From: Fibrobacterota bacterium
Lineage (GTDB): Bacteria > Fibrobacterota > Fibrobacteria > UBA11236
Reading direction: 5' to 3'
NCBI GenBank assembly: GCA_028287505.1
Contig: JAQBPN010000070.1
Coordinates: 3,671 to 67,670, forward strand
DNA: 64,000 nucleotides
In this document: positions 9,042-34,535 of the stretch, piece after piece
Position numbering within the stretch: the first letter of the stretch is position 1
How the letters are laid out: each line of letters begins with the position of its first letter
Position numbers and translations under genes: made by a program
Notes under the pieces: model-generated
Told to the model about the DNA's origin: nothing
What the model saw: only the letters and a program-made list of their open reading frames with translations
Database searches by the model: none

Positions 9042-9562
9042 GTTCGAATATACCTGGGATAATATAAGAACGGAAACCCGTCATCGAAGGGGGATTCCTC
9101 CTTATCTTGGATAAGGAAGGAGCGCGATTCCTCGCAAAGAATTTCCAGTTGAGTTACTTGGGGCGCGGCGGGCCGGATCAGGCCGGCTCGCCGCGGCCCC
9201 GACATGAAGGACTCCCGGAGGCGGCATTTCTCCCCCACCACCCACGCCGACGGGAATTCCCTCCAATCCCATCGGCGGTGTACCCCTCCTTAGCCGCCGA
9301 TGGGTTGGAGCTTTTGCTCCGCCGCGCATGGACTGGATAACTGCCCGCCAACGTCATCATGTGGTTCACAACCGCTCACAAGCTTGCTCGCTCCCGGCTC
9401 ACATGCCTTTGGGGCATGTTCGCTGCCCTCGTCGCAGAACACGCGGGTCCGCCAAGGCGAACCCGGTACAGCTCCTCGGGCGGTTTAGTTGGCGGGGACG
9501 CATCGCTGTTACCGGCTCTCTGCCAGTTCTCCAGTCCATGCGCGACGGAGCAACCTTCTTTT

Positions 9563-18240: not shown

Positions 18241-20088
18241 ATGGGTGCCAAGCCTTTTATTTCCCTTCCGATTTCACGCCGTTCCGCCGGGCTCTGCCTG
18301 ACAGGCGCTTTCGCATTGGCGATTTCCTCCTGCATCTCCGATGGTGCAAACCGGACCGGGGGGGAGTACCTCTCCCAACATGGAGTGCTCCTCCAAGATC
18401 CCCTCTACCACGTCACCCTCAAAGGGATCCCCGTGGACAGCTTCTGGACCACGGATGCGGAACCCAGCCATCTGGCGGATACCATCCTTCTGGTTGGGAG
18501 CGATTCGGATTTCAGCGCCGAGGCCAGGTTGGCCTTCCAGTTGGACGATATCAATTCCCTCTTCAGATTGGACAGCCTGGATGCAACCTCTCTGAAACTC
18601 TCCCTGGGCTTCCCTGTGCCCCCTATCGGAGGCGATGAATTGGATTCAGCAGCGAAAGCCAGTTCCGCCGATACCGTGGATTTGGAGGTCGTGTCGTGGA
18701 GCACCACCGACAGCGGACTTACCGATGCCCAGTGGACCGATACGCTGAATACCTGGAACAACCGTTTTCTGATCCGGAACGATACCGTTGCCGCGCTCGA
18801 ACGATTCCATCCAATCCGGGACACCATCCATATAGCCTTCAAGACCGCGTACACGACCGGTTCCATCCAGGCGCAGCCCCTTCCCAACCTCCATGCCGGA
18901 TTGGTCAAGATTCGGGGACATAAAAACCTGATTGAATGCCGCATCAGGCGCATCCCCGGAAAATCCACGGGCCCGGCCATGTTGCACCTGGGCGGGGAAT
19001 TGCCCGACGATCCCGAGTACGTCTACGAGCCCATCCTGATTTTCGGCCCATATGGGACCATAGCCGGGACACCATCTTCGAACTTCATGCAGACCATGTT
19101 CGTTGGGGGCCGGCGAGGCGTCAATTACTCCCTGATGTATTCCGGCCCCAAGGAAAACATCCTGACTGGCAAAGTGCGCGGGCTGCATGTTGTTCTCGAT
19201 CGCAAGACCCTGCTGGACAGCATCGATGCGGATTTGCAGCGGCAGAATCTCCCTCTTCAGCCGCGCACGACCTCCGGTGATTTCGACTTGTCCTATTTCG
19301 TCCCCTTCGCGAAAATGACCCTGCCCCTGGACCTGGCGAAGACCAAGCTGGAATCGGGTTTTCCTCTGCAAATCAACATGGTCACCAGCATCGACAGCCT
19401 TCTGGGCGATACCATCTCCGGCGGCATCCGCGTGGATACGGTTCAGCAAGGGGTTCCGAGGATTCTTTGGCATACCTATGATCCGGGAAATCCCGGAACC
19501 ATCCTGGACGATGTCAGCATCACCTATGACCCGGTTCTGAATTCGGGCGACGCCCGGCTCCGCAAAGTCATCCTGAAATTTTCCCGGGATTCCGTGTTCA
19601 ACGATACCTCCTACATCCATGTCGGCGAATCCAAGCAGCGGACTACGACCTTGCAGGGTTACGGCAAAAGCTTTTTATCCCTGACCCTGGATGCGGATTC
19701 CCTCGTCTTGGCCGTCCACAGCTACCTGACGGTCCGGCCGGAGGCGGAAAACAACGAGTACCGGGATTCGGTCACGGGGGAAACGATAACCGATTTGGAA
19801 AGGCGGATGCAAAAGTTCCTCCATTCCGGGGATTCGGAATTGTCCTTGCGGGCCATCCACGGATTCCAGCGTTTGTTGAACCGGACGCGCTCCAATGCGA
19901 ACGTGCTGCAAGACTTCCAATTCCAACCGTCCGTGTTCTCCGCCGTGGATACCTCGTTCATCGTCGGAGGCGACACTACTTCCGCAGTAGTGGACTACCC
20001 GGTGCTCTCCGTGGTCGCTCCCAAGCTCGAGGGCAAAAGCCTGAAGGTCGACGTGGAACTTTACCTCTTTCCTCTGAAGGCGCGCTGA
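18241..20088 (+). CDS. Large hypothetical lipoprotein (615 aa)
   Basis: Lipobox signal peptide (LTGAFALAISSC). No recognisable enzymatic motif. Immediately followed (2-nt gap) by an OMP gene. Confidence 0.55.
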   Translation: MGAKPFISLPISRRSAGLCLTGAFALAISSCISDGANRTGGEYLSQHGVLLQDPLYHVTLKGIPVDSFWTTDAEPSHLADTILLVGSDSDFSAEARLAFQLDDINSLFRLDSLDATSLKLSLGFPVPPIGGDELDSAAKASSADTVDLEVVSWSTTDSGLTDAQWTDTLNTWNNRFLIRNDTVAALERFHPIRDTIHIAFKTAYTTGSIQAQPLPNLHAGLVKIRGHKNLIECRIRRIPGKSTGPAMLHLGGELPDDPEYVYEPILIFGPYGTIAGTPSSNFMQTMFVGGRRGVNYSLMYSGPKENILTGKVRGLHVVLDRKTLLDSIDADLQRQNLPLQPRTTSGDFDLSYFVPFAKMTLPLDLAKTKLESGFPLQINMVTSIDSLLGDTISGGIRVDTVQQGVPRILWHTYDPGNPGTILDDVSITYDPVLNSGDARLRKVILKFSRDSVFNDTSYIHVGESKQRTTTLQGYGKSFLSLTLDADSLVLAVHSYLTVRPEAENNEYRDSVTGETITDLERRMQKFLHSGDSELSLRAIHGFQRLLNRTRSNANVLQDFQFQPSVFSAVDTSFIVGGDTTSAVVDYPVLSVVAPKLEGKSLKVDVELYLFPLKAR

Positions 20089-20089
20089 C

Positions 20090-21310
20090 ATGGGCTTTAT
20101 TTCATTCCGAACTTTGCGTCTTTTGCCCGCAGTCGCGGCCGTGAATCTTTTGGTTTCCTTCGTCCATTCGGAAACCTCGCCCTTGAGCGCTGTGCAGGAC
20201 GGCTTCGGCCTGGAAGTGAGCGGCTACAATTCCCGGGAAAAGGGCATGGGCGAAGCCGGTTTGGCGACCATAAACCGCGTCGGACCTTCCATTCCCAATC
20301 CTTCGAAAACGGCGTTCAACGAGAAGACCTCGTTTTCGGCGACCTTCGATACCGACCTGGATTGGCTTCGCGATAGCGATGTCTCCAATCGCACTACTAC
20401 TTTCATCATTCCCGACATCGCCTTGAACTTTCAGACCCGATGGCCCGTGAACGTGGGTCTCTATTACCGGCAGCGTTTCCATCGGAATTTCAGCTTCACT
20501 CCCGCCGCCCAGGCGAATCAGAATGTGCTTGAGTCCTTTACGACGGAAGGGGGGATCTACGAACTGGCCAGCACCGTGGCCTATGCGCCCAAACCCTTCC
20601 TGGCCCTGGCCTTGGGATATCATTTTCTGATAGGCCGGGAGCGGACCATCGAAAGCGCCGGCTTCACGCAAAACCCCATCAACGATACGTTGCGAAATGG
20701 GGAGGATTTGAAAGGGGATACCGTTTCCGTCCGCAGCAACGGCAATTACCCTTCGGCCTCCCTGACTTTCCGCCAGAAAACCTTCAGCCTGGCCGTCACC
20801 GGAACCATGGCCACCACCTTGGACCGGACCCTCAATCGGACCGTCACCAACCTTTCATCCGACGAAAAAAGCAAGGAAAGCCGGGATTTGCCCTGGACTG
20901 TCCAGGTTGGCGCGGCCTTCAAACCCAAACAGAACCAGTCCGTGGCCGTGGATTTCAGTTATGAATCGTGGGAGGACGTGGCTTCAGGATTGCTGAATCC
21001 GGCTTTCCATGCGGGTGCCGGGTATGAATACCAGGGCGTAGGGAACCCATACGAACCCTATTTCCGCAAGGTTGCGTATCGCGGAGGCTTAGGGATGGAA
21101 AGGTTATATTTGGATGAGACCAATCTCTACTTTCTGACCTTAGGCACCGGATTGCCCCTAGGCAGAAGAGGGAACCTTCTCGATGTTGCATTAAAGTATG
21201 GACATCGCGATAGCCGAGAAAATAATTTATGGTCTGAAGATTTTCTGAAGCTTTCCGTGACCTTGACCGGTGTAAGCGTGTGGGGACAGCCAGTCCGCAA
21301 ACGGCATTAA
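20090..21310 (+). CDS. Outer-membrane beta-barrel protein, uncharacterised
   Basis: Signal peptide (LLPAVAAVNLLVSFVHS), amphipathic beta-strand periodicity throughout; 406 aa. Confidence 0.5.
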   Translation: MGFISFRTLRLLPAVAAVNLLVSFVHSETSPLSAVQDGFGLEVSGYNSREKGMGEAGLATINRVGPSIPNPSKTAFNEKTSFSATFDTDLDWLRDSDVSNRTTTFIIPDIALNFQTRWPVNVGLYYRQRFHRNFSFTPAAQANQNVLESFTTEGGIYELASTVAYAPKPFLALALGYHFLIGRERTIESAGFTQNPINDTLRNGEDLKGDTVSVRSNGNYPSASLTFRQKTFSLAVTGTMATTLDRTLNRTVTNLSSDEKSKESRDLPWTVQVGAAFKPKQNQSVAVDFSYESWEDVASGLLNPAFHAGAGYEYQGVGNPYEPYFRKVAYRGGLGMERLYLDETNLYFLTLGTGLPLGRRGNLLDVALKYGHRDSRENNLWSEDFLKLSVTLTGVSVWGQPVRKRH

Positions 21311-21337
21311 CCGGTCCGACTACCTGGAGGTTCGACC

Positions 21338-22624
21338 ATGAAAAACAAACTGGACAAGAATTCAAAACTCCCTTCCGGCAAATCCAAGGAAGCCTCCTCC
21401 TCGGATGCCAAGTCGAAAGGCAAGCCGGCCAAACCGGTCCCTAAAAGTCCACCTCCCGCTTCAGCGAAAAAATCCAAACCCATAGGGGATTCGAAGCCGT
21501 CCAAGGCCTCGCCCGAATCCAAGTCTCCTGCCCAGCCGGCCAAGGCCGGAAAGGCCGAGAGCGGGTCCATAAGCGGCAAATCCGCCAAGTCCCCGTCCCA
21601 GGCCAACCGGGAAACAGCGGCCCCCGTTTCCAAGCGTCCCGCTGCCGGAAAGACCACCGCGCGCGCGCGGGGCAAGGCGGGCTCCGCCGATTCCGCCGAA
21701 GAATTGAGCCTGGAAGAGTTCGCCATTTCCCTCATCAAACCCGGGGAAACCAAGGAACGCATCTGGCGCACCAAGAGCTTCCAACAGCATCCCGCCCAAC
21801 GGGAGTTCGGCTTTCCCGATGTCGCTCCCGAGTTGCCGGGCCAGTACAGCCAGCCCAAATTGGTGCTGATGCCCAAGGATCCGGAATACATGTTCTGCTA
21901 CTGGGAATTGACTCCAACCTTGATAGAGGAAAAGGAACGGGAGAAGCTGGCTACCGGAAACTACCGGGAAACCCTCAAGATCAATTGGGAATCCAAGTCG
22001 CTTTTCGAACCCAACTTCACCTTCATCCCCGTTTTCTTCTGGGCCCGTAAATGGTATTTCGGCGTTCCCCAGGTGGGCCAGCGGTATCAGGTGGAACTGG
22101 GATGGCTTTCGGACAGCGGGCATTTCATTTCCATCATCCGGTCCAACCTCTCGGAATTGCCGGAAAGCTGGGCGGCCACCCAAAAACGCCTCGCCGAACA
22201 GGGCGAAGTGCTGGCCTACTCTTCCAGCCATACCAAGACCCTGGGCAGCTCCGAGCACTTGGTGGTCGAGGACATCCGCTCCTTCGTTCCGGAATGGAAC
22301 CTCAGTTCGGAAAGCATGAGCTCCTCTTCCTGGTCCCGCGGGGTATCCGGGGAAACAGCCCAGGCTTCTCCCCAACAGTCCGCCCCGGCTCCCAAGGCCT
22401 CCAAGCCTCGGCCGGCGTCACCGAAAGCCCGCCTGGAAGTCTCCGGCAAGGTCCTGCCCGGCACCCAGGTCTTCGTCAGCGGCAATGCGGTATCCACCAA
22501 CGCCCAAGGCTATTTCAAGACGGAATTCCCATATAACAAGGACACCCTGAACCTGGAGCTCACGTCCCGTTCGGGCGCGAGCCGCTCCTTTACCTACGAT
22601 CTCAAGGAGTTGGTTCTGAACTGA
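21338..22624 (+). CDS. DUF4912 domain protein with a Lys/Pro/Ser/Ala-rich N-terminal low-complexity region
   Basis: The core MFCYWELTP...WYFGVPQVGQRYQVELGW is characteristic of DUF4912, a family usually encoded next to GH57 enzymes. The first about 120 aa are K/P/S/A-rich. The stop overlaps the GH57 start (TGATG). Confidence 0.7.
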   Translation: MKNKLDKNSKLPSGKSKEASSSDAKSKGKPAKPVPKSPPPASAKKSKPIGDSKPSKASPESKSPAQPAKAGKAESGSISGKSAKSPSQANRETAAPVSKRPAAGKTTARARGKAGSADSAEELSLEEFAISLIKPGETKERIWRTKSFQQHPAQREFGFPDVAPELPGQYSQPKLVLMPKDPEYMFCYWELTPTLIEEKEREKLATGNYRETLKINWESKSLFEPNFTFIPVFFWARKWYFGVPQVGQRYQVELGWLSDSGHFISIIRSNLSELPESWAATQKRLAEQGEVLAYSSSHTKTLGSSEHLVVEDIRSFVPEWNLSSESMSSSSWSRGVSGETAQASPQQSAPAPKASKPRPASPKARLEVSGKVLPGTQVFVSGNAVSTNAQGYFKTEFPYNKDTLNLELTSRSGASRSFTYDLKELVLN

Positions 22625-24195
22625 TGGGTTACCTGAACTTCGTTCTGCACGCCCATCTGCCTTACGTCCGACATCCCGAACACGCCCGCTTCCTCGAAGA
22701 AGATTGGTTCTTCGAGGCCATAACGGAAACCTACATCCCGCTCCTCCAGGAGTTCGAGGCCCTGGCCAAGGATCGGCTTCCCTTCAAGATCACCATGAGC
22801 CTCACGCCGCCCTTGTGCGAGATGCTCGCGGATGAGCTGCTGCAAACGCGCTACATCAACCACATCAACCGGTTGCGCGAATTGGCGGAGAAGGAATGCA
22901 CCCGCACCAAGAACGATCCCGCCTTCTGCTACCTGGCGGCCATGTACCGCAATCTTTTCGAGAAGTGCCACAAGATCTTCAACGGATATGATCGCAACCT
23001 GCTGAACGGTTTCCGGAAATTCCAGAAATCGGGCAACCTGGAAATCATCACCTGCGGCGCGACCCATGGATTCCTTCCCAATCTCAGGATTTCCCCCCGC
23101 ACGGTGGAAGCGCAATTGGCCGTGGCGGTTGGCAATTATTGGAAGCATTTCGGCCAGGAGCCCTGGGGCATCTGGCTGGGCGAGTGCGGGTACTATCGCG
23201 GCCTGGACAAACTCATCAAGGAGTCCGGTCTCCGGTATTTCTTCGTGGATACCCACGGCATCCTGCAAGGGGATCCTCCTTCGCCAAAGGGAAACTACGC
23301 CCCCATCGAAACGCCCAACGGCGCGTTCGCGTTCGCGCGCGATCAGGAATCCTCGAAAGCCGTCTGGTCCGCCGAGGAAGGCTATCCCGGGGACTTCCGC
23401 TACCGCGAATTCTACCGGGATATCGGATTCGATCTGGACATGAAATACATCGGCCCCTACATCCATCCCATGGGGCTGCGCATCAACACCGGAATCAAAT
23501 ACTTCCGCATCACCGGCAAGGGCAACTACAAGGAACCCTACGTGGAGGATTGGGCCAAGCAGGCCACCGGGGAGCATGCGGAAAATTTCATCTTCAACCG
23601 CGACAAGCAGGACGAATGGCTTTCGGGCCGCCTTGATACGCCGGCCTGCATCGTTTGCCCCTATGACGCCGAATTGTTCGGCCACTGGTGGTATGAAGGC
23701 CCCATGTTCCTGGGCAAGGTGATGCGCAAGGTGCTCACGGAAAACAACCACCGCGTGCAGTTGTCCACCCCGCGCGATTACCTGATGATGCACAAGGATG
23801 CGCCCCGATCGGATCCGGCCTTTTCCTCCTGGGGAGCCGGCGGCTATGCCGACGTGTGGTTGAACGGCAGCAATGATTGGATCTACCCCCATCTCCACAA
23901 GATCGGGGACCTGATGCACGAAGTGGCGGGACTCCCGGCCGGCGGAGATCAGGACCGCCGGGCCCGCAATCAGATGGCCCGGGAACTGCTGCTGGCGCAA
24001 TCGTCGGATTGGGCCTTCATCATGAAAACCGGGACCATGGTCGATTACGCCGTCAAACGGACCAAGGTCCACGTGCACAACTGCCTGGAACTGTACCGCC
24101 AAATCCGCACAGGCTCCATTTACGAACCCTTCCTCCAGAACCTGGAGTCGACGGACAACATCTTCCCTGAAATCGATTACAAGGTCTACGCGTAG
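22624..24195 (+). CDS. Glycoside hydrolase family 57 (1,4-alpha-glucan branching enzyme-like)
   Basis: N-terminal GYLNFVLHAHLPYVRHPE (GH57 signature); 523 aa; translationally coupled to the upstream DUF4912 gene. Confidence 0.88.
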   Translation: MGYLNFVLHAHLPYVRHPEHARFLEEDWFFEAITETYIPLLQEFEALAKDRLPFKITMSLTPPLCEMLADELLQTRYINHINRLRELAEKECTRTKNDPAFCYLAAMYRNLFEKCHKIFNGYDRNLLNGFRKFQKSGNLEIITCGATHGFLPNLRISPRTVEAQLAVAVGNYWKHFGQEPWGIWLGECGYYRGLDKLIKESGLRYFFVDTHGILQGDPPSPKGNYAPIETPNGAFAFARDQESSKAVWSAEEGYPGDFRYREFYRDIGFDLDMKYIGPYIHPMGLRINTGIKYFRITGKGNYKEPYVEDWAKQATGEHAENFIFNRDKQDEWLSGRLDTPACIVCPYDAELFGHWWYEGPMFLGKVMRKVLTENNHRVQLSTPRDYLMMHKDAPRSDPAFSSWGAGGYADVWLNGSNDWIYPHLHKIGDLMHEVAGLPAGGDQDRRARNQMARELLLAQSSDWAFIMKTGTMVDYAVKRTKVHVHNCLELYRQIRTGSIYEPFLQNLESTDNIFPEIDYKVYA

Positions 24196-24622
24196 AGTAG
24201 ACCCGTTTATGCGTAAGCATAAACCCGTCTACGCGTAGCCTCTCCGCACCTATTCGGAAATGTGATTTTTGTCCCGATTTATGTTGGCTTCCAACAGGCC
24301 GGATCCAGGCGGAATCTTTATAGATTTTGATTGCCGTTCCGATTGGGCGGACAACCGCCGGTGCGGAAAAAGTTTCGGGCACGGGACTGAAATACCGCCG
24401 TAACCACCGCGAAATGCGGTGAAACCGGTGTCCCGCGGTTCCGTGCGCGGGACGGATGCGTTGGGGTTTCCTAACGCATTTCCGATTTCCTGCCGTTGGA
24501 TTTTTTTCCCGATTTTGGCTTTATCGGGGTGTTTGGCCGGAAAAAAACAAGACGAATCCCCAAGCCACAGGTTCAGGCCGGAATTATTATAAGCCTGTAC
24601 CGGGGGAGATGGAGGCGATTCC

Positions 24623-24928
24623 GTGGGGAATATCAGCGCAATGCTGCTCATCTTGGTCTTCCTCGTCATCGGGGTGACCCTGGCGATTCTTTTCCTGGCC
24701 GTGCTCCGGGAAACCCTGTTCTGGTATTGGCGCTCCAAAGGCGTGATGCAGGAACCGGAAGATATTCTCAACCGTCCCCACGAAACCGCCCTCATCATCC
24801 GCAAGAGCATCGCAGGTATGAAGTCCGGATTGGCCCCGGGGGCGAATACCAGGACCCCGACGGCGAAATCAATCGCGGCGGAAAATGCCGCGGCGCCGCA
24901 TCCGGGTTTCAGCGACCAAAACCCGTAA
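24623..24928 (+). CDS. Small hypothetical membrane protein
   Basis: One strong TM helix (ISAMLLILVFLVIGVTLAILFLAVL); 101 aa; no homology recognised. Confidence 0.3.
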   Translation: MGNISAMLLILVFLVIGVTLAILFLAVLRETLFWYWRSKGVMQEPEDILNRPHETALIIRKSIAGMKSGLAPGANTRTPTAKSIAAENAAAPHPGFSDQNP

Positions 24929-24942
24929 ACCTTCCCCGACCG

Positions 24943-26526
24943 CTATTTCCGCAAAAGATTGTGGACCCGGGTCATAAGATCATAGGGAGAAAAAGGCGTG
25001 ACCAGGTAATCGTCCGCGCCCAACTGGAATCCCCGCGCCAAGGCCTGATCGGCACCCAATGACGTAATCATCAGCACGGGCACCCGGTTCCCCCGCCAGC
25101 TGGAGCGCAGATCCGTGAGCAGGCTCCGTCCCTGGGACGCCTCCTGTTTCAGGTCCAGGATCCAAAGGGCGCAAGGCGTGGCCAGGGCCGCACGCAAGGC
25201 CGAAGCGCCATCGCGGCAATGCACCACCTCGAAACCTTCCCGGTCCAGACTGTTGGAAACGATTGAGGCGACCTGATCGTCGTCCTCGGCCAAAAGGATT
25301 TTCTGCGTCTCCACCTTGGTCTGATCGGCTTCGGAAACCAAACGCGCGCGGCCGCCGGTCTTGGCCAGGTAGAGGTAGCGATCCGCCTCGGCCATGGCCT
25401 TCTCCACGGTGGAATCATGGAGCACGGAAACCAGGCCCGCGGAAAATGTCAGGGGAACCGGGCGGCCGTCCTGGGTGCGGAAAGGGATGGAAGCCAGGGT
25501 GGAGAACATTTTTTCCACGGCGAAGCGCGCGCCCGGCAGATTGGTGTTGGGAAGCAGCAGGGAGAATTCGTCCCCTCCCCATCGGGCCAGGAAATCGGAA
25601 CGCCGCAGGGCGTCCGCGAAAGCCCGGGCGGCATGGCGCAAAGCGGCATCGCCGGCCACATGGCCCAGGTGATCGTTGATGCGCTTGAGCATGTCGAAAT
25701 CCAGCAAGGCCAGGGAGGTGGGTTCCTTTTTCCGCGCGGCCAGGGCCACCGCGCGGTGGAAGCCTTCGCAAAAGGCCGCGCGATTGGGCAATCCCGTGAG
25801 CGCGTCCTGCCGCGCCTCGCGGCGATGCTCGATGGACCGGTGCAGGCGCGCGGAGACGGCGGCCTTGAGGACTTCCGGGGCCAGGGGTTTCTCGAAATAG
25901 GCATCGGCGCCAAGCGCGAAACATTCCGTCTTGGGCTGAGGTCCGCCGATTCCGGAAAGCACTATCACCGGGACCCCCGACGTGGCCGATCGTTCGCGCA
26001 GGAGCATCAGGAAGTTCCGGCCATCCGTGTCCGGCAGGGAAAGGTCCAGGATGATGAGCGAGAACTGCCTGTCCTCCAGCACCGCCAAGGCTTCGCCCGC
26101 GCTGCCCAGGGCCGTAATCTCCCGATCGGAACCGGAGAGGATTGTCTCCAGCAACCGGCACATCTGCGCGTCGTGTTCGATGATGAGGATGCCGGGAAGA
26201 TCCCCCGGACCCAGCGCCGCGCTGACCTTGATCAATTCCGAGAGCAGGCGGTCCAGGCAATAAGCCAGCTCTTCCGGACGGGACTGCTCCACGGCGCGGG
26301 CGGATTCCCCCAAGGAATGGAATCCGTAGCTGTTGGCCGAACCGCGCAGGCTGTGCGCGATGCGCCGGACGGAATCCGTGCCGTCCGGGGATTTCGCGAG
26401 ACCCTTCCTCGCGGTCTTGAGCGCGTCTATGCTGGCCGGGAGACTCCCGCGATACCACTTCCTTAAATCTTCCATAACTCTCCATGCCCATTGACCGTGC
26501 TCATTCGCCTTCTCCCTCCGCGCCAT
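24943..26526 (-). CDS. Hpt-REC-GGDEF-REC multidomain protein (phosphorelay-regulated diguanylate cyclase)
   Basis: Hpt motif RIAHSLRGSANSYGFHSLGE; first receiver (LIILDLSLPD); GGDEF domain with intact RWGGDEFSLLLP; second receiver at the C-terminus (ILDLKQE...LGADDYLVTPF). Confidence 0.85.
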   Translation of the reverse strand: MARREKANEHGQWAWRVMEDLRKWYRGSLPASIDALKTARKGLAKSPDGTDSVRRIAHSLRGSANSYGFHSLGESARAVEQSRPEELAYCLDRLLSELIKVSAALGPGDLPGILIIEHDAQMCRLLETILSGSDREITALGSAGEALAVLEDRQFSLIILDLSLPDTDGRNFLMLLRERSATSGVPVIVLSGIGGPQPKTECFALGADAYFEKPLAPEVLKAAVSARLHRSIEHRREARQDALTGLPNRAAFCEGFHRAVALAARKKEPTSLALLDFDMLKRINDHLGHVAGDAALRHAARAFADALRRSDFLARWGGDEFSLLLPNTNLPGARFAVEKMFSTLASIPFRTQDGRPVPLTFSAGLVSVLHDSTVEKAMAEADRYLYLAKTGGRARLVSEADQTKVETQKILLAEDDDQVASIVSNSLDREGFEVVHCRDGASALRAALATPCALWILDLKQEASQGRSLLTDLRSSWRGNRVPVLMITSLGADQALARGFQLGADDYLVTPFSPYDLMTRVHNLLRK

Positions 26527-27661
26527 CGTCGATGTCCTGGAAGCCCAGGTGGCGGAAAGCGAATTCGCCGCGGATCCCGAAGCCGGTATAGGTCTGGTTG
26601 TCGACTTGTCCGTATAGCATCGTCCCGGCCACGCGTATGCGATGGTATTCCCAGATCCTGAGGCCCATAGTCAGCCCCGCTTCCGTTTCATGCCCCACCG
26701 CGGTTCCGTTCCAGCTGAAAATCGCCCTGGGCGCCACGTGCAGGCGCCAGAGAATGTCCGGATCAGGGGCCCAGGCCACGGACATTTCCAGGTAGGCCCT
26801 TTGCAGGTTGTCGTCCGTGTCCGGGGCCTCCAGATCGGATTTGAGCTTGAGGCGCCGGTTGGCGTCCGGCAACTTTATCGCCGCGCCTAATCCCGTTTGC
26901 CAGGCCACCCGGCGGAGCGATTTGAGATATTCGTAACGAAACTGATAAAGATCCCCTTCGTTGTGGGCGGGGATGCGGATATCATTGCCCTCATCGCCAT
27001 AAATGGAGGCCTTGGCGTCCCAGCGGTGGCGCGCCGCCCGCGCCTGGTATATGGCCCGTCCGGAGAAATCGAAATAGGATGCCGGAAAGAAGGCTTTGTC
27101 CTTGATCAGCCGGAAAAGCGCGGGACGGGAATATCCGAATCCTCCTATCAAGGTCCAATTGGTCCAGGCGTAACGGCCGAAAACCGCCGCTTGCAAAGCC
27201 CGCGGGGACAGGAAGGAGGAAAAGGGCATGGGACTGTACCCGTTCATGGCCTGGTACAGCGCCAGGGAATCCGCCAAGGCGATGGTGTCGCCGAAGATGG
27301 GGATGTTGCCGCCGAAGGAGACGAAGAGATAATCCCGCAGCACTTCGGCGCTGGCCTGCAGCTTCAGGGCCAAGGGCTCCCGATAGGGCTGGGAGAATCC
27401 GGGGGCCTGGGTCTCCCGGGAACGCAGCCCGATATGGAACCAGGCGAAGGTGAGCGATTGGATGGTGAATCCCTGGTAGAGGCTCGCCTGATAGGGATAA
27501 GGCTGGCCGGTCACGGCAGGCGAGTTGAGATAGAACACGTCGATGGAACTGTGGGCGATCCACGGGAACCCGTGTTCCTGGCTGATCTCGGCGGTATCGG
27601 TCTTTTGCGCCAGCGCGGAGACGGCGGACAGCAGGACCGGGATCAGGAAACGCAGCGTCAT
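26501..27661 (-). CDS. Outer-membrane beta-barrel protein, uncharacterised
   Basis: Start at MTLRFLIPVLLSAVSALAQ (signal peptide), which is Met28 of ORF 26501..27742. Beta-strand periodicity rich in Y/W/F. Overlaps the upstream repeat-protein gene by 4 nt and the downstream GGDEF gene by 26 nt. Confidence 0.5.
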   Translation of the reverse strand: MTLRFLIPVLLSAVSALAQKTDTAEISQEHGFPWIAHSSIDVFYLNSPAVTGQPYPYQASLYQGFTIQSLTFAWFHIGLRSRETQAPGFSQPYREPLALKLQASAEVLRDYLFVSFGGNIPIFGDTIALADSLALYQAMNGYSPMPFSSFLSPRALQAAVFGRYAWTNWTLIGGFGYSRPALFRLIKDKAFFPASYFDFSGRAIYQARAARHRWDAKASIYGDEGNDIRIPAHNEGDLYQFRYEYLKSLRRVAWQTGLGAAIKLPDANRRLKLKSDLEAPDTDDNLQRAYLEMSVAWAPDPDILWRLHVAPRAIFSWNGTAVGHETEAGLTMGLRIWEYHRIRVAGTMLYGQVDNQTYTGFGIRGEFAFRHLGFQDIDDGAEGEGE

Positions 27662-29364
27662 GGGCCGAGACGGTCCGGGCTGCAGAGGTAACATCCGGAT
27701 TCCTGGGCGCCGGAACGGAACGTGCCGCCGAACTCGCCCCAACCCTCCTTCTCCGAAGAAAGCACGTCCATCTCCATGTCCATTTCCCTGGATTCGGAGA
27801 CGATGAAAGACTGCATGGATTTGTCCGCCGTGCGCAACGCCGAGCCGGCTCCGAAAAACTTGCCGGGAAGGAACATGGCGAAGGGCCGCGTGCCCCGGTT
27901 GGGATCCACGGTTTCGAATTCACGCAGGATGCGATCGCCACGCAATGGATTGAGCCTTTCCTGCTTGAGCGAGTAGCCGCGCGTCCGCACCGTGCGCATG
28001 GCTCCGACCGCCACGGCTTCCTGGGAACTCAAGAGCGGTTGCGCGGACATGCTTCCTTTGACCACCTCCATGGTGGAAATGCTGCCTTCGTGGCGGAACA
28101 ACACGGCTTGCGGCTGACCGCGCGCGATAAAGGAGGGAGTGAGCACCACGCTGTTGTCCTGGAAGGCGAGCAGGCCTATTTTGCGCCAGATGCTGTTGCT
28201 GTCCAGCGAGGCTATTTCCCCCAATTTGCGCCAGATGAGATTGTTGCTGTCCAGGGAAGAAACCTGGCCCAGGCCTTTCCAGACCAGGTTGGAACTGTCC
28301 AGCGCGGCCACCTGCGTCAATGTGCGCAACAGCAGATTGCTGCTGTCCAATGCCGTCACTTTGCCGAAGGTCTTGAACAGCAGATTGTTCGAGTCCATCG
28401 ACGTGACCTTCTGCAGGTTTTTGAGGATGAGGTTCTGGCTGTCGAGCGAGGTAACCTTGCCGAGACCCTTCCAGAGCAGGTTGCTGGTATCCAGGGCCGC
28501 CACCTTGGTCAGGGTCTTCCAGATCAGATTGCTTTGGTTCAAGGTGGTGGCCTGTCTCAGGCGCCCCTCCACCGAAGAGGAATCCACGCCCTTGATGATC
28601 CCCAGGGTCCCCTGGTTGAGCTGCACCACCTTGGGGAGCAGATAGGTGTAGGAAGAATGCGGGTACAGAACGTAGTGGATATTCTCCATGCTGATGACGA
28701 TGAGCCGCGGCGCGTCCCCGATCACCAGGGTGGTCCCCAAGGGCACTTCCGAGATGGATCCCTTGTGGATGATGGCGAGTCCGCGGATGAGCATGGCGGG
28801 GTTGGCCGGAACCTTCAGCTTCAGGACTCCCAGCGATGGAGGGTCCGCTTTTTTGGCCAGGAAGGAGGCCTCGAAAGGGCGCGCCACGGCCTGGGCGAAC
28901 AGCTTGCGCTTCTCCCCCGCTTCCAGCAAAACATGCAATGTATCGAGAACGCGGTTTTTCGCGGAGAACATGTCCACCGCTTCCGGCCGGCAGCGGTATT
29001 CTTCCTTCAATTCCGCGCACTCGACGATCAGGCCCCACTTCACCTGGTTTCCGTTCATGGGCGCGAGCAGGGCCGGGTCGGCGATCTTGCCTTTGGCATG
29101 CGCCGAATCCAGGGCGTTGCCGTTCTTCTTGCGGAGATCGAAGACCAGCAAGGCGGTGTCATCCGCCAAGGCCTGGCCCATATCGCGCGAAAGCCCTTCG
29201 TTATAAGCGGAGTCGCGGCCTTCCACGTAGGCGCCCAATACGCTGACGGCGACCTTGCCCCACGCGGAACCCAGGAAGACGGATAGGATGAGGCAAACGT
29301 TCCGCAAGGCGGAACGACGGTTTCGCGTTGCGGGACACGACGGCCCGGCCGGGGAAGCATTCAC
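27658..29364 (-). CDS. Secreted protein with 7-8 tandem 16-residue repeats (consensus NLxWKxLGKVTSLDSx); LRR-like but shorter than canonical LRR units
   Basis: N-terminal hydrophobic signal (NVCLILSVFLGSAWG). Residues about 279-406 are exact 16-aa periodic repeats, mirrored by a 48-bp DNA periodicity. The alternative-frame ORF 28139..28645 is also periodic. Confidence 0.6.
   Translation of the reverse strand: MNASPAGPSCPATRNRRSALRNVCLILSVFLGSAWGKVAVSVLGAYVEGRDSAYNEGLSRDMGQALADDTALLVFDLRKKNGNALDSAHAKGKIADPALLAPMNGNQVKWGLIVECAELKEEYRCRPEAVDMFSAKNRVLDTLHVLLEAGEKRKLFAQAVARPFEASFLAKKADPPSLGVLKLKVPANPAMLIRGLAIIHKGSISEVPLGTTLVIGDAPRLIVISMENIHYVLYPHSSYTYLLPKVVQLNQGTLGIIKGVDSSSVEGRLRQATTLNQSNLIWKTLTKVAALDTSNLLWKGLGKVTSLDSQNLILKNLQKVTSMDSNNLLFKTFGKVTALDSSNLLLRTLTQVAALDSSNLVWKGLGQVSSLDSNNLIWRKLGEIASLDSNSIWRKIGLLAFQDNSVVLTPSFIARGQPQAVLFRHEGSISTMEVVKGSMSAQPLLSSQEAVAVGAMRTVRTRGYSLKQERLNPLRGDRILREFETVDPNRGTRPFAMFLPGKFFGAGSALRTADKSMQSFIVSESREMDMEMDVLSSEKEGWGEFGGTFRSGAQESGCYLCSPDRLGP
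28147..28530. repeat. 48-bp tandem DNA repeats (about 8 copies) inside the repeat-protein CDS
   Basis: Periodicity is visible in both the real frame and the alternative-frame translations (…SSEAISPNLRQMRLLLSREETWPRP…). Confidence 0.65.
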
Positions 29365-29581
29365 CCCGTTATTATACCCTTTCCCAAGGGCTGGAACGCA
29401 ACCGGAGAGTTATTCGGCGATACAGTCCGTCGTAAGGTTATCCGGATCCCGATGGCCCCGGAATGCGGCGCGCCGGATCGCGCCATGAAATTGTTTCGGG
29501 GCATGGCCCCATTAGATAGATTCTATCCGTTCCGGATATCACAGAAATGTTCCGCGAGCAACGGTCCCCCGGAGAATTTCC

Positions 29582-31657
29582 ATGGCCGGTTCAAAAACGC
29601 CCGGTTCCAGATTGGCTCTGCCGCTTTCCCTGCTGGCATTCTGCGCCATCCACCGGGAAGCCGGGGCCGGAACCGAAGGGGATCCGCAAGGTCCGATTTT
29701 CCGGAAGCCGAGTTTCTCCCAAATGGAACGCGTCGTCGTGGTCTCCAAAAAACCGGAAAGCATCCTGGAAGCGCCCGGTACGGTTTACGTCATCACGGAT
29801 GAGGATATCGAAAGGTTCGGCTGGCGGGACATGCGGGAGATCCTATGGTCCATCCCGAACATGGATCAGGTATGGCAATTATACTGGGCGAACGGAGGAC
29901 AAAGGGGATTCACGGGGAATTCCGCGGGCACGTTGCTTCTCATCGACGGCAGGGAGGTCCAGAACCTGCTGGCCGACGAGGCCATGATGCAGAACTTTCC
30001 CGCGCACCGGATCAAACGCGTCGAAGTGCTGCAGGGGCCGGGTTCGGCTCTTTACGGAAGCAACGCGAGCGAAGGCGTGATCAACATCGTGACCAAGCTG
30101 GCCGATCCGCTTCAAGAAGACGCCTCCCAGGTGAGCTTCCTTGCCGGGGAAACGGACTCCCGGGGAGCCTACGCCTTCAGCAGGAAAAACGGCGCAAACA
30201 CGTCCTTGGGCGTGAGCGGGTCCTATTTCACCAGCCTGCAGAATTGGGGTCCCCTGCGTGATTTCATCGCCGATGACGGCCGCTTCTCCCGCCGTCCCTC
30301 CGTGGACTCCGTCCGCGACAAGGAATCCGATAAAGTGGTATTCCCGGTCGAAAGCGAAACCTTCGATTTCTTCGCTTCCAGCCCCCACGTCTATGCCGGA
30401 GCGAACTATTTCCGCGAAGAGAATACCGAAGGTATGGAAATGGTCCGCGTCCGGTTGGGGGAACGCACCGGTTACCGCCTGGCCTTCCACGGATTCGCCG
30501 GCGCCAAATATGAGCGCGAAGCACTCCAGGGCTTCGCCGAATACCGGTATAGCCGGGAACGGGACAATTTCCTCGGAGCGGACCAGACGGTGATACCGTT
30601 GCCCAATCGGGTCTTCCGGCCGGAACGCCATCGGCTGAAAGCGCAGGGAACCTACCGTTTCCCGAACCAGACCATTGTGTTCGGTTACGACGGGATAATT
30701 CATGAGACCGGGTTCTACGAGGACACCTCGCTGGTGGGAGGGCTGACCTATCCCTCCATTCCCTCCAGGATTTTCCGTACCTATCTGAATTCCGTTTTCG
30801 CCGAGAATACGATATTCCTCCTCGATGGGCGGTTGAAAATCAACGCGGGCCTGCGGGTTGAAAAGCAGAAAGGCATGGATCCGCAGGTGATTCCCCGCTT
30901 GGGTATGGTGCTCCAGGCTTGGCGGGGAGCGGCCGTCAAACTTCTCTATGGGCACGGTGTCCGGGCTCCCGGTCCGTTCGAGCTCAACAATGCAAGGAGC
31001 GCCGGGATTGCCGCATCGGAAGTACCCTCCCGCAAGACCGACGATTTCGAAGTGAATTGGGTCCAGGAATCCGGTTGGGGCGACTGGCGATTCGTAAACA
31101 GCATGTCGGGATACCACATGGTGGCAAACGAAAATTTCCAGCAAGTCCTCGTCCAGGATACCTTCCGGTTGGTCCTGGACGAGGACAAGACGGTGGATGG
31201 GGTCGAAGACCTGCTCCGCATTACCTGGCGCGAAAAGCATGGCGGTTTTCTGGGCGGCCGATGGATCGATCCATCCCGGACGGAAGTGGCCGGGGAGAAA
31301 ATAGTGGCTGACGTGCCCATCGTCCGCGGAAAGGCCGGATTGTATTCGCGATTGCTTCCCTGGATTCTCATCGGCGTGTTCATCGACGCATCGGGAGAGG
31401 TCAAAACGGATGCCAATTCCCCGGATGGAAATTCCGTCGAAGTCCTGACCATTCCCGGTTGGGTGAACACGAATCTCAACCTGCGCCTGGGTGACTTCGA
31501 TCTGGGAAAGCCGGGAGGAGCGAGGCTGGGTTTTTCCACCTTCATCGAGAATGTTTTCGATGAAACCTATTACCACCCCAACCATCGGGGAACGTCTCCC
31601 ATCCAATACATGCAGGCTCCGCGGAACATGCGATTCACCGCGGATATGAAATTCTAA
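29582..31657 (+). CDS. TonB-dependent outer-membrane receptor
   Basis: Signal peptide; plug domain (VVVSKKPESILEAPGTVYVITDEDIERFGWRDMREIL...LQGPGSALYGSNASEGVINIVTK); 22-strand barrel pattern; C-terminal ...RFTADMKF. Confidence 0.85.
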   Translation: MAGSKTPGSRLALPLSLLAFCAIHREAGAGTEGDPQGPIFRKPSFSQMERVVVVSKKPESILEAPGTVYVITDEDIERFGWRDMREILWSIPNMDQVWQLYWANGGQRGFTGNSAGTLLLIDGREVQNLLADEAMMQNFPAHRIKRVEVLQGPGSALYGSNASEGVINIVTKLADPLQEDASQVSFLAGETDSRGAYAFSRKNGANTSLGVSGSYFTSLQNWGPLRDFIADDGRFSRRPSVDSVRDKESDKVVFPVESETFDFFASSPHVYAGANYFREENTEGMEMVRVRLGERTGYRLAFHGFAGAKYEREALQGFAEYRYSRERDNFLGADQTVIPLPNRVFRPERHRLKAQGTYRFPNQTIVFGYDGIIHETGFYEDTSLVGGLTYPSIPSRIFRTYLNSVFAENTIFLLDGRLKINAGLRVEKQKGMDPQVIPRLGMVLQAWRGAAVKLLYGHGVRAPGPFELNNARSAGIAASEVPSRKTDDFEVNWVQESGWGDWRFVNSMSGYHMVANENFQQVLVQDTFRLVLDEDKTVDGVEDLLRITWREKHGGFLGGRWIDPSRTEVAGEKIVADVPIVRGKAGLYSRLLPWILIGVFIDASGEVKTDANSPDGNSVEVLTIPGWVNTNLNLRLGDFDLGKPGGARLGFSTFIENVFDETYYHPNHRGTSPIQYMQAPRNMRFTADMKF

Positions 31658-31674
31658 GGAAGGGATTCCGGCCC

Positions 31675-32253
31675 ATGCTGTCATTTGCCTCCAAAGCCGC
31701 GGTCGCCATGTCCATGCTGATCGCCGGCAGCGGCGCGGCGGTCGCGGAGTCGGCGATTTCGGCCCCGGAATACAATGTCAAGGCCGGGTATCTGTTGCTT
31801 TTCATCCGCTATGTGACATGGCCCGACACCACGTTCGCATCGCCGCAATCCTTCATCATCGTCGGGGTTTTGGGAAGGGATCCATTCGGAAAAGTGCTGG
31901 AAGAAACGTTCGCGGATGCGGCCGGCATGACAGGACGGAAAACGGAAATCCGCCGGGTTTCCGATGTTGCGGGCGCGATGGGATGCCATGTGGTCTTCAT
32001 CAGCGATTTCGAATCCGGCCATACCGCGGAATGGCTGGCGGCATTGCGGGACAAGCCGATTCTTACCGTCACCGAAACCGAAGAAGGTGCGGATGCCGGT
32101 TCGATAATCAATTTCATCAAGGAAGGGAACCGGGTCCGGTTCGAAGTCAACCTGATGGCCGCGCACCGTGTCGGCCTGAAAATCGCATCGCCTGTGCTGG
32201 TGTCCGCGCGGAATGTCGGAAAGCAGGGCGGCAAAGAAGAGGGAAATCCTTGA
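31675..32253 (+). CDS. YfiR-family (DUF4154) periplasmic protein
   Basis: Signal peptide followed by VKAGYLLLFIRYVTWP...HVVFIS...ILTVTETEEGADAGSIINFIKEGNRVRFEVNLMAAHRVGLKIASPVL, typical of YfiR/DUF4154. The stop overlaps the start of the downstream kinase (TGATG). Confidence 0.75.
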   Translation: MLSFASKAAVAMSMLIAGSGAAVAESAISAPEYNVKAGYLLLFIRYVTWPDTTFASPQSFIIVGVLGRDPFGKVLEETFADAAGMTGRKTEIRRVSDVAGAMGCHVVFISDFESGHTAEWLAALRDKPILTVTETEEGADAGSIINFIKEGNRVRFEVNLMAAHRVGLKIASPVLVSARNVGKQGGKEEGNP

Positions 32254-34535
32254 TGGTCTCGATAATGGAAGATCCCGAAGAAGGATGGGGGCGGTTCAGG
32301 AACCTGCCCATCCAGCGGAAACTTTTTTTCACAATCGCTTTGACCCTTGGATTCGCGATCCTGGTGGCCTCGTCCGCTTTGCTCATCTATGAAGCCCGTT
32401 CTTTCCGGCCGCGCACCCTGGAAAAAGCGGAATCCCGGGCCGAAATGCTGGCCGAAATCCTGGTGCCTCCCATGGAATTCGACGACTCCGCCACTTGCGC
32501 CGCCTACCTCCGCACCCTGAGGCATACGCCCGATATATCCAGCGCGGTCCTGTGCGATACCGGAAGGAACGCTATCGCGTCCTATAGCAGGACGGCCGGT
32601 GACCCGTTTCCGCATCGGGTACGGACACTGCCGACGGGGCCGACTTTCGGCCCGCACGAACTCATGTATCTGCTCCCGGTATCCGATCATGGCCATCTGC
32701 TCGGATACCTGGCGCTCAGGGAGGAATTGCCCTCCTTTCTGGAACGCCTGCCCCAATACGGCATCATGCTTTCGGTGATCGCCCTCTCCCTGCTGGCCCT
32801 GGCGGCAATGCTCGCCCTTGTCCTCAAACACACGGTTACCGCCCCCATCGTCGCATTGGCCGGTATCGCCAAAGCGGTCGCGGAAGACAAGGACTACGGG
32901 CAACGAGTCAAGTCGGGAGGGAAGGACGAAGTGGGATCGATGACGGCCGCCTTCAACATGATGCTGGATGCCCTGGAACAACGGGAACATTCGCTGCTCG
33001 AAAGCCGCGCATTGCTCCAATCCGTCATCGACAATTCCATGTCGATTATCTTCGTGAAGGATCCGGAGGGGCGCTACATATTGATCAACCGGCGGTTCGA
33101 GGACATTTTCCACGTTTCCCTCCAATCGGTACGGGGCAGAACCGATCGCGATATTTTTCCCGAAGAATCCGCGGAAGCGTACCGGGCGGGCGATCTGCGC
33201 GCCCTGGCCGGCGGCAGACCCGTTGAGATGGAGGAACAGATTCCGCAGGACGACGGCCGGCATACCTACATCACGGTCAAATATCCCTTGCGCGACGCCG
33301 CCGGAAAGGTCTATGCGGTTTGCGGTATCGCAACGGACATCACCCAGATAAAGAATTATGAGGAACAACTCCGCCAAAGCCAGAAAATGGAGGCGATCGG
33401 CCGCTTGGCGGGCGGCATCTCCCATGACTTCAACAATCTCCTCACGGCCATCAACGGTTACAGCATGATGGCCTTGCAGAGCGTGGAAGCCGCCAATTCC
33501 ATCCATGGATTCCTGGAAGAGATCCTGAAGGCCGGCGAACGGGCCGCCGGCCTTACCCGCCAACTGTTGGCCTACAGCCGTAAGCAGATACTCGAGCCCA
33601 GGATCTGGAACCTCAATGAAATCGTGATGGACATCGAAAAAATGCTCCGACGGCTCATCGGGGAGGATGTCCGGCTGACCACCCGCCTGGCGCCGGATCT
33701 GAAGATGGTAAAGGTCGATCGCGGCCAGTTGGAGCAGATCATCCTGAACCTAGCGCTCAATGCCCGCGATGCGATGACCGGAGGGGGGGAATTGATCGTG
33801 AAAACCGGAAACGCGTTCCTGGATGGGGCCTATGCCGCGACCCACCCTGAAGTGGCCGCGGGTCCATACGTCCAGCTCGAGGTGAGCGATACCGGTTCCG
33901 GCATGAACCGGCAGGTCATGTCGCATCTGTTCGAACCGTTTTTCACCACCAAGGAACCCGGCAAAGGCACGGGGCTCGGGCTGTCCGTGGTGTATGGAAT
34001 CGTACAACAGAGCGGAGGATCCATTTCCGTATCCAGCGAACCCGGGAAGGGGACTACCTTCAGCATCTATCTGCCGACGACGCCCGTCTCCGGGACTTCG
34101 CAACCTGAAGGCGGCAAGCTTCCCGAGGGAGGCGCATTCCGGGGAAAGGAAACCGTGCTTCTGGTGGAAGACGAAGAAGTGGTCCGCAGGTTCACCCGGC
34201 ATATCCTGGAGGCCCAGGGGTACGCCGTTCTGGAAGCCGTCGATGGGGTCAAAGCGCTCGAAGCCATCGCCGGCCACGCCGGCCCGGTGGATTTGATCCT
34301 GTCCGATGTGGTGATGCCCCACATGGGCGGGCCTGAATTGGCCGAACGGTTGCGCAAGGAATCCCGGGACATTCCCATGCTTTTCATTTCGGGCTATGCC
34401 GATGGGGGTGCGGCCAGCTTGGGCCCATTCGCCGACGGAAACGATTTCCTGCAAAAACCGTTTTCCCCCTATAATCTGGCGAAAAAGGTGCGGGAAATCC
34501 TCGACCGGGTCCGAACCAGCGAACCCGAATCATGA
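32253..34535 (+). CDS. Hybrid sensor histidine kinase (TM-periplasmic-TM-HAMP-PAS-HisKA-HATPase-REC)
   Basis: Two TM helices bracket a periplasmic domain of about 150 aa. HAMP; PAS ([25 protein letters not shown]); H-box ([11 protein letters not shown]); N/G boxes; C-terminal receiver ([10 protein letters not shown]...[12 protein letters not shown]). Start is Met146 of ORF 31818..34535. Confidence 0.9.

Follow-up and report, generated by a model that had tools for sequence, protein, structure and literature searches.

A three-gene envelope module in Fibrobacterota

We examined a window of 64,000 nucleotides (nt) from a Fibrobacterota bacterium (GenBank assembly GCA_028287505.1, contig JAQBPN010000070.1, positions 3,671 to 67,670 of the forward strand), in which a gene for an exported protein with 16-residue tandem repeats is followed by genes for an outer-membrane beta-barrel and a diguanylate cyclase, all on the minus strand. 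These three co-oriented genes, the first two of which overlap by four bases, make up an envelope module that is specific to Fibrobacterota. The repeat-protein gene (27658..29364, minus strand, as are all features of the module given below in window coordinates) was delimited using the list of open reading frames (ORFs) and the sequence, and encodes 568 amino acids (aa) from a GTG start. A signal peptide was identified at aa 1-36 (29257..29364) from the sequence and from an alignment of homologues (alignment A1), with cleavage predicted between A-W-G and K37. The position of this signal peptidase I type site (AxG or AxA before K) is conserved among the homologues, and alignment A1 contains no conserved lipobox cysteine. 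The ORF, which had been proposed in an initial annotation, and its N-terminal signal peptide are real; the description of the product as secreted holds as far as export by the signal peptide and not beyond it. An exact look-up of the protein in the sequence collection gave no match, and the source record probably has a different start call.

The stop codon of the repeat-protein gene overlaps the start codon of the barrel gene (26501..27661) as ATGA at 27658..27661, as initially annotated. The 386-aa product of the second gene has a signal peptide and was modelled by AlphaFold2 as a barrel with about 16 strands, a loop helix at aa 129-140 and a first strand beginning at residue 34 (mean predicted local distance difference test score (pLDDT) 85, predicted template modelling score 0.77), confirming the earlier assignment of the partner as a beta-barrel outer-membrane protein. 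Its sequence matches MDB5049535.1 of a Fibrobacteres metagenome-assembled genome (MAG) at 100% identity. The coupling of the two genes is conserved, with an NTGA overlap and a signal-peptide-like start found in 16/19 loci, the window included. Barrel and repeat-protein pairs were also sought in related genomes: the barrel gene adjoins the repeat-protein gene in 19/19 other loci, and a REC-GGDEF-REC gene lies directly downstream of the barrel gene in 17/19 (all Fibrobacterota MAGs). In the window this third gene (24943..26526), previously described as Hpt-GGDEF, encodes an Hpt-REC-GGDEF-REC diguanylate cyclase (Pfam: Hpt 5e-8, Response_reg 8e-37 over two stretches, GGDEF 3e-37). Coupling to a dedicated barrel gene is consistent with fixed stoichiometry of the two envelope proteins. 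In a relative with 84% identity (locus L005), only ~850 bp (8792..9643) separate the barrel gene from the GH57 gene and no GGDEF match was found. This relative seems to have lost the cyclase gene.

The repeat protein belongs to an unannotated family restricted to the phylum Fibrobacterota. Its 50 homologues all come from Fibrobacterota MAGs or unnamed metagenome contigs, and those with a named organism all derive from MAGs of Fibrobacteria or Fibrobacterota. When 1.84 billion representatives were searched exhaustively with profiles, the repeat-protein and barrel families were equally rare and co-distributed (40 matches), and 17 genome loci were found among 185,579 species genomes, all in Fibrobacterota-type MAGs. 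Neither protein matched a family in Pfam (searched as single proteins) or NCBIfam, and nothing was found for the repeat-protein family when all 23 members of the alignment used for modelling (see below) were searched against Pfam at E up to 10. The only recurrent Pfam match, T6SS_Tse3_N (E 0.03 or worse), was taken as noise. Sequence profile searches of the Protein Data Bank (PDB) with the repeat protein gave only marginal, chance-level matches, all outside the repeat block; the barrel sequence had no match in Pfam, NCBIfam or PDB, and a second profile search added no annotated relatives. A literature search on this module in Fibrobacterota found nothing relevant. One locus (L004/L021, CAYNXV010000019.1) is labelled 'uncultured Bifidobacteriales bacterium', and this label is probably wrong, as the locus is fully syntenic and of Fibrobacterota type (Rho, P5CR, a repeat-protein family member, barrel, REC-GGDEF, GH57, DUF4912).

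Convergent with the module is a plus-strand block (18241..24195) comprising genes for a GH57 branching enzyme and a DUF4912 protein and two ORFs without a family match. In most loci GH57 adjoins the module, as does the entire block wherever gene calls existed, including loci whose family member has no repeats. Overall, the conserved neighbours of the module are GH57, DUF4912 and housekeeping genes. A TonB-dependent-receptor-like gene, a DUF4154/YfiR-like gene and a hybrid kinase gene diverge from the module on its other side (29582..34535, plus strand), and this trio is beside the module in no other locus examined. The hybrid kinase (32253..34535) has the architecture CHASE8-HAMP-PAS-HisKA-HATPase-REC, without Hpt; as the cyclase at 24943..26526 does carry Hpt, a phosphorelay between the two is possible. 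When 24100..29700 was scanned for promoters and terminators, the counts were similar to those in shuffled sequence, and a single plausible feature emerged, a GC-rich hairpin just after the stop codon of the cyclase gene (24892..24874).

Two folded domains and a conserved C-terminal tail

The repeat protein was modelled using AlphaFold2 with a 23-sequence alignment, which yielded two confidently folded domains. First, an N-terminal alpha/beta domain (aa 37-170; 28855..29256) has a TolB-N/PelC/LpoB/GNA1162/CT253-like fold, with a pLDDT of 84-92 over most of its length and 66-72 at its N-terminal edge. Foldseek matches of this domain in PDB had E-values of 1.6e-4 to 1.7e-2, and template modelling (TM) scores normalised to the target were 0.45-0.57 for PelC, GNA1162 and LpoB; the PelC structures among them (5t11, 5t0z and 9h80_A) matched at E 1e-3 to 1e-2 with TM-scores of about 0.5. 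The N-terminal domain of TolB, LpoB, GNA1162 and CT253 share this fold and belong to periplasmic proteins working at the outer membrane. TolB adds a beta-propeller and LpoB a lipid anchor and a long linker, and none of them has the repeat or the tail described here. The domain contains an invariant pair of cysteines (Cys116 and Cys125, context EC....ELKEEYRC, 28990..29019; alignment A1) that probably form a disulfide.

Second, a beta domain with a putative FecR-like fold is split by the repeat block. Its first half (aa 180-262; 28579..28827) consists of confidently modelled strands and ends, just before the insert, in a hairpin (QLNQGTLGIIKGVDSS) that is itself similar to a repeat unit; its second half (aa 405-470; 27955..28152) has a pLDDT of 74-93. 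In the model, aa 180-258 and aa 405-470 form one confident beta domain with the repeat block inserted between them, and both the block (aa 263-401) and the C-terminal tail have a pLDDT <50. The beta domain matched a putative anti-sigma factor (BDI_1681, 4m0n/4m0h) by Foldseek with an E-value of 9e-4 (root-mean-square deviation 2.4, 73 columns), as well as the C-terminal signalling domain of PupR (6ovk, as 6ovk_R) with an E-value of 5e-3. There is no sequence-level match to Pfam FecR in the repeat protein or the alignment members. The likeness to the periplasmic domains of FecR/PupR anti-sigma factors extends to the pairing of a periplasmic protein with an outer-membrane barrel. However, the protein described here has a cleavable signal peptide and lacks a cytoplasmic anti-sigma domain, a transmembrane helix and a gene for an extracytoplasmic function (ECF) sigma factor, its domain is split by repeats, and its partner is a plain barrel instead of a TonB-dependent transducer with a signalling domain. 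The nearby TonB-dependent receptor, with its Plug starting at aa 62, also has no signalling domain and is not conserved with the module.

The C-terminal tail (aa 471-568; 27661..27954) is conserved and is mostly modelled with low confidence. It ends in the hallmark of the family, the CxxC-containing GCYLCSPDRLGP (aa 557-568; 27661..27696), whose consensus GC(Y/F)LCxPxRxGP is present in all full-length members, including those without repeats. G557, C558, Y559, L560, C561, P563, R565 and G567 are the invariant tail columns in alignment A1. Both the tail CxxC and the Cys116/Cys125 pair would fit a periplasmic, oxidising location.

For the partner, Foldseek returned generic matches to porins, AlgE and FadL. 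The top TM-score (0.52) was to the PelB barrel 9h80_M, from the same PDB entry as the PelC chain matched by the N-terminal domain (9h80_A), with TM-scores of 0.40-0.47 to porins and AlgE.

Anatomy and history of the repeat block

The repeat block (28150..28530) is made up of seven 16-aa units (aa 279-390) and an eighth unit (aa 391-405) that has lost one residue relative to the 16-aa register. It is preceded by one or two degenerate leading units (aa 247-278; 28531..28626), which were recognised from the unit table and alignment A1. The unit table thus bears out the 16-residue periodicity reported initially; of the eight consecutive units claimed, seven are full units and the last is only 15 aa long. 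The consensus is N-L-(I/L/V)-(W/L/F)-(K/R)-x-L-(G/x)-(K/Q)-V-(A/T/S)-(A/S)-L-D-S-(S/N). In a per-position profile of 126 units (7 units from each of 18 genomes), N1 and D14 are invariant, and L2, I/L/V3, W/L/F4, K/R5, L7, V10, L13 and S15 are strongly conserved. A 5-residue insertion is present within unit 3 in one subclade (P0033, P0036, P0038 and P0042; alignment A1 columns about 356-365), so strict adherence to a 16-residue register is not essential at that unit.

Contrary to the initial annotation, these repeats are not exact: pairwise identity among the seven full units is 38-75% for protein and 48-77% for DNA. Unit pairs 1/5 (65%) and 2/6 (72%) are closer than other pairs (units 1-7, 28195..28530), which indicates an old duplication of a four-unit, 64-residue block. 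The DNA was also described as 48-bp periodic, which is true in that 54% of bases match at lag 48 compared with 21-34% at the non-multiple lags tested. This periodicity is weak, and Tandem Repeats Finder (27000..30000, minimum score 30) detected no 48-bp array, only an unrelated 6-bp run. As the DNA units are this diverged, with the longest exact word common to units being 13 nt, slippage or recombination between them is not expected.

Unit number is invariant across close relatives: all those with 60-85% identity have 7+1 units at matching positions. In an independent Logan assembly, a stretch of 3,219 nt that spans the entire repeat block does not differ from the window. Across the 18 genomes, units with the same index are 75% identical between genomes, and units with different indices are 52% identical, both within and between genomes. 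This difference shows that neither homogenisation nor turnover of the units has taken place. The array is therefore older than the clade with 60-85% identity and has not been reshuffled since.

More distant members differ in unit number. Six units are present in P0048 (39% identity) and degenerate, alanine-rich ones in the L020 protein, and several family members of 400-470 aa have none. Two of the proteins with zero repeats (P0131 and P0139) keep both domains and the CYLC tail and are encoded in the same gene order (P5CR, then the repeat-protein family member, barrel and REC-GGDEF, with GH57 convergent); where an orthologue has no repeats, the first half of the FecR-like domain runs straight into the second. 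Since orthologues with this gene order can lack them, the repeats represent a derived insertion and not the core of the family. By these comparisons, unit number changes across deep branches only, and the array probably grew from the segment preceding the insert (QLNQGTLGIIKGVDSS), which is already unit-like in pattern.

Proposed role of the repeat protein and its alternatives

The repeat protein is exported to the periplasm via its signal peptidase I type signal peptide, and we propose that it would dock beneath, or partly within, its own barrel on the periplasmic side. We infer docking because PelC, LpoB and TolB use this fold in outer-membrane-associated complexes. The exported protein brings together the TolB-N/PelC/LpoB-fold domain, the FecR-like beta domain, the CxxC tail and, in one clade only, the repeats, as eight units of 16 residues that interrupt the FecR-like domain midway. 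The second gene supplies a dedicated 16-strand outer-membrane barrel and the third a response-regulator diguanylate cyclase, and the protein and barrel pair may form an outer-membrane-anchored unit that is functionally tied to cyclic di-GMP (c-di-GMP) signalling. The repeat block is an old, frozen expansion, probably from an ancestral hairpin-like segment of the FecR-like domain, with the four-unit duplication coming later. It would most likely act as a fixed-length rigid extension, probably of stacked short amphipathic helix-turn units, and the conserved CxxC tail could serve as a contact or as a redox/metal site. We have moderate confidence in the combination of a periplasmic partner docking on its own barrel, repeats as a fixed-length extension and a tie to c-di-GMP. 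Surface display, which had been suggested initially, is disfavoured because the protein has two well-folded periplasmic-type domains and repeat-less orthologues occur in the same operon.

For the unit itself, the favoured fold is a short amphipathic helix followed by a four-residue turn (D-S-S-N). This is suggested by the hydrophobic moment of the unit profile, which peaks at 100 degrees and is lowest at 150 degrees, by the Ala/Ser/Thr residues at positions 11 and 12, by the alanine-rich units of L020 and by the single helix of 9-12 residues per unit that DSSP assigns in the model, the last of which carries little weight at pLDDT <50. Hand-calculated Chou-Fasman-type propensities fail to distinguish helix from strand, a distinction that the periodicity alone provides.

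Several points weigh against the proposal as a whole. The AlphaFold2 models of the repeat protein and the barrel are monomers. PelC is a lipoprotein, and a conserved lipobox is missing from the repeat protein. Many unrelated 16-18-strand barrels were matched by the barrel with similar E-values, and the TM-score of 0.52 to PelB amounts to no more than a modest lead. The cyclase is located in the cytoplasm, and a transmembrane link between it and the envelope pair was not identified. As for the repeats, the low pLDDT of the block and the tail makes the helical assignment weak, the commonest residue at unit position 8 is glycine, which would be mid-helix, and the unit-like flanking segment is modelled as a beta hairpin. 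It is possible that the units instead form a beta-solenoid, each adding a two-strand coil to the FecR-like domain, which would fit the unit-like flank about equally well.

A narrower version of the docking reading is a PelBC-type polymer exporter, in which the barrel would be an exopolysaccharide porin, the PelC-like domain would form a periplasmic ring or funnel, and c-di-GMP made by the cyclase would activate a synthase encoded elsewhere. The structural matches point in this direction, with the N-terminal domain matching PelC in three structures and the barrel scoring highest against PelB. In PelB, 16 strands form a barrel into which a helix points, and PelC sits as a ring on the periplasmic face of this barrel (PMC12141448); the barrel described here likewise has about 16 strands and one loop helix, and a c-di-GMP cyclase is encoded within the operon. 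The Pel system, too, has a link to c-di-GMP. However, PelC, which assembles into a dodecameric ring, is a lipoprotein with an outer-membrane anchor; the repeat protein is not a lipoprotein, and its PelC-like domain shares one polypeptide with a FecR-like domain, repeats and a CxxC tail. The barrel lacks the periplasmic TPR domain to which that of PelB is fused, and the helix of the barrel is found between strands 5 and 6 instead of 7 and 8. Sequence similarity to the Pel system is not detectable. Genes for a glycosyltransferase, deacetylase or synthase and other pel-like biosynthesis genes are absent from the conserved neighbourhood, and the same fold occurs in TolB, LpoB, GNA1162 and CT253, which export no polymers. 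We consider such an exporter possible but doubtful.

Alternatively, the repeat protein could be a secreted substrate (a fibre, an adhesin or an amyloid-like subunit) that passes through the coupled barrel, as in FapC/FapF or curli. Translational coupling to the barrel gene and tandem repeats with low model confidence speak for such a substrate, and the conserved C-terminal CxxC is a feature of FapC as well (PMC6173800), so that in both systems an imperfect-repeat protein with a conserved CxxC is encoded with an outer-membrane barrel. The details differ for both partners. FapF is a trimeric 12-strand barrel (PMC6173800) with a periplasmic coiled coil, whereas the barrel described here lacks an N-terminal coiled coil and comprises about 16 strands. 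Apart from three long imperfect repeats, FapC is largely unstructured, whereas here the CxxC is at the extreme C-terminus and the repeats are flanked by two confidently folded, periplasmic-type globular domains. The units are amphipathic with Lys/Arg and are not rich in Gln/Asn/Gly, and the repeat-less orthologues in the same operon imply that repeats are not the core function. We therefore consider a secreted substrate unlikely. A two-partner secretion (TPS) arrangement, also raised initially, is not supported: Pfam shows no TpsA/TpsB features in either protein, with no TPS domain in the repeat protein and no POTRA or other Omp85 features in the barrel, where strand 1 at residue 34 leaves no room for a POTRA domain. 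The N-terminal domain of the repeat protein has the PelC/TolB-N fold instead.

That the repeats are ordinary leucine-rich repeats (LRRs), or another catalogued solenoid missed by sequence models, is highly improbable. The pattern is leucine-rich with an invariant Asn, but aligning this residue with LRR position 9 puts Lys/Gln, Ala/Ser and Asp at positions 1, 4 and 6 (126-unit profile), so the core LxxLxLxxNxL does not fit, and a unit of 16 residues, as the initial annotation had noted, is shorter than those of LRRs (20-30). Neither LRRs nor any other repeat family were found in the Pfam and NCBIfam searches described above, no PDB sequence match covers the block, and the hydrophobic periodicity is helical and not beta. 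The repeat thus belongs to no known family, in line with the initial annotation; structure prediction, which had been proposed for the block, gave a pLDDT <50 there. Ice-nucleation proteins also have tandem 16-residue units, in their case dozens of units with the consensus AGYGSTxTAxxxSxLx that form a beta-solenoid displayed on the surface. The unit length is the same, but here the consensus is another, there are eight units, and the hydrophobic periodicity is helical. Candidates for homology to other repeats came from the exhaustive profile search as weak matches to the repeat region only (E 3e-10 to 8e-4), and these have other periods; 39-residue WDISNNVWRQLG-type repeats, low-complexity SANVTA repeats and others were rejected as homologues. 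The main weak matches (P0150-P0152) are very long proteins with ~39-residue repeats (WDISNNVWRQLGNTTYNGTN...) that share an LDSSNxL-like segment with the repeat region and seem unrelated.

The weakest explanation is the contingency locus of the initial annotation, in which the 48-bp periodicity would lead to frequent gain and loss of units and so to phase or length variation: lag-48 matches are twice the background and unit number does vary among very distant members (0, about 1-3, 6 and 7+1), but the divergence of the DNA units, the constant 7+1 units in all relatives of at least 60% identity, the identity of two assemblies and the greater similarity of same-index units refute it.

This removes a false lead, as the gene is not a hypervariable surface gene. 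What remains is a small pair of families, unannotated and confined to one phylum, whose genes are very tightly coupled and usually accompanied by that of a diguanylate cyclase. As the hosts are Fibrobacterota from soil and sediment that have not been cultured, the immediate impact is limited. More speculatively, the unit could represent an undescribed structural repeat class, a one-helix stack or a two-strand coil that lengthens a FecR-like fold, serving as a fixed-length periplasmic ruler that connects a dedicated barrel to c-di-GMP signalling in Fibrobacterota, with the C-terminal CxxC peptide engaging the barrel; we put this forward tentatively. With its invariant Asn and Asp, the repeat motif falls outside current family models and is a candidate for structure determination and for a new Pfam entry. 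Overall, the locus encodes an uncharacterised module built from known folds plus this motif, and the naturally occurring range of 0, 6 and 8 units within this operon allows direct tests of what the insert does.

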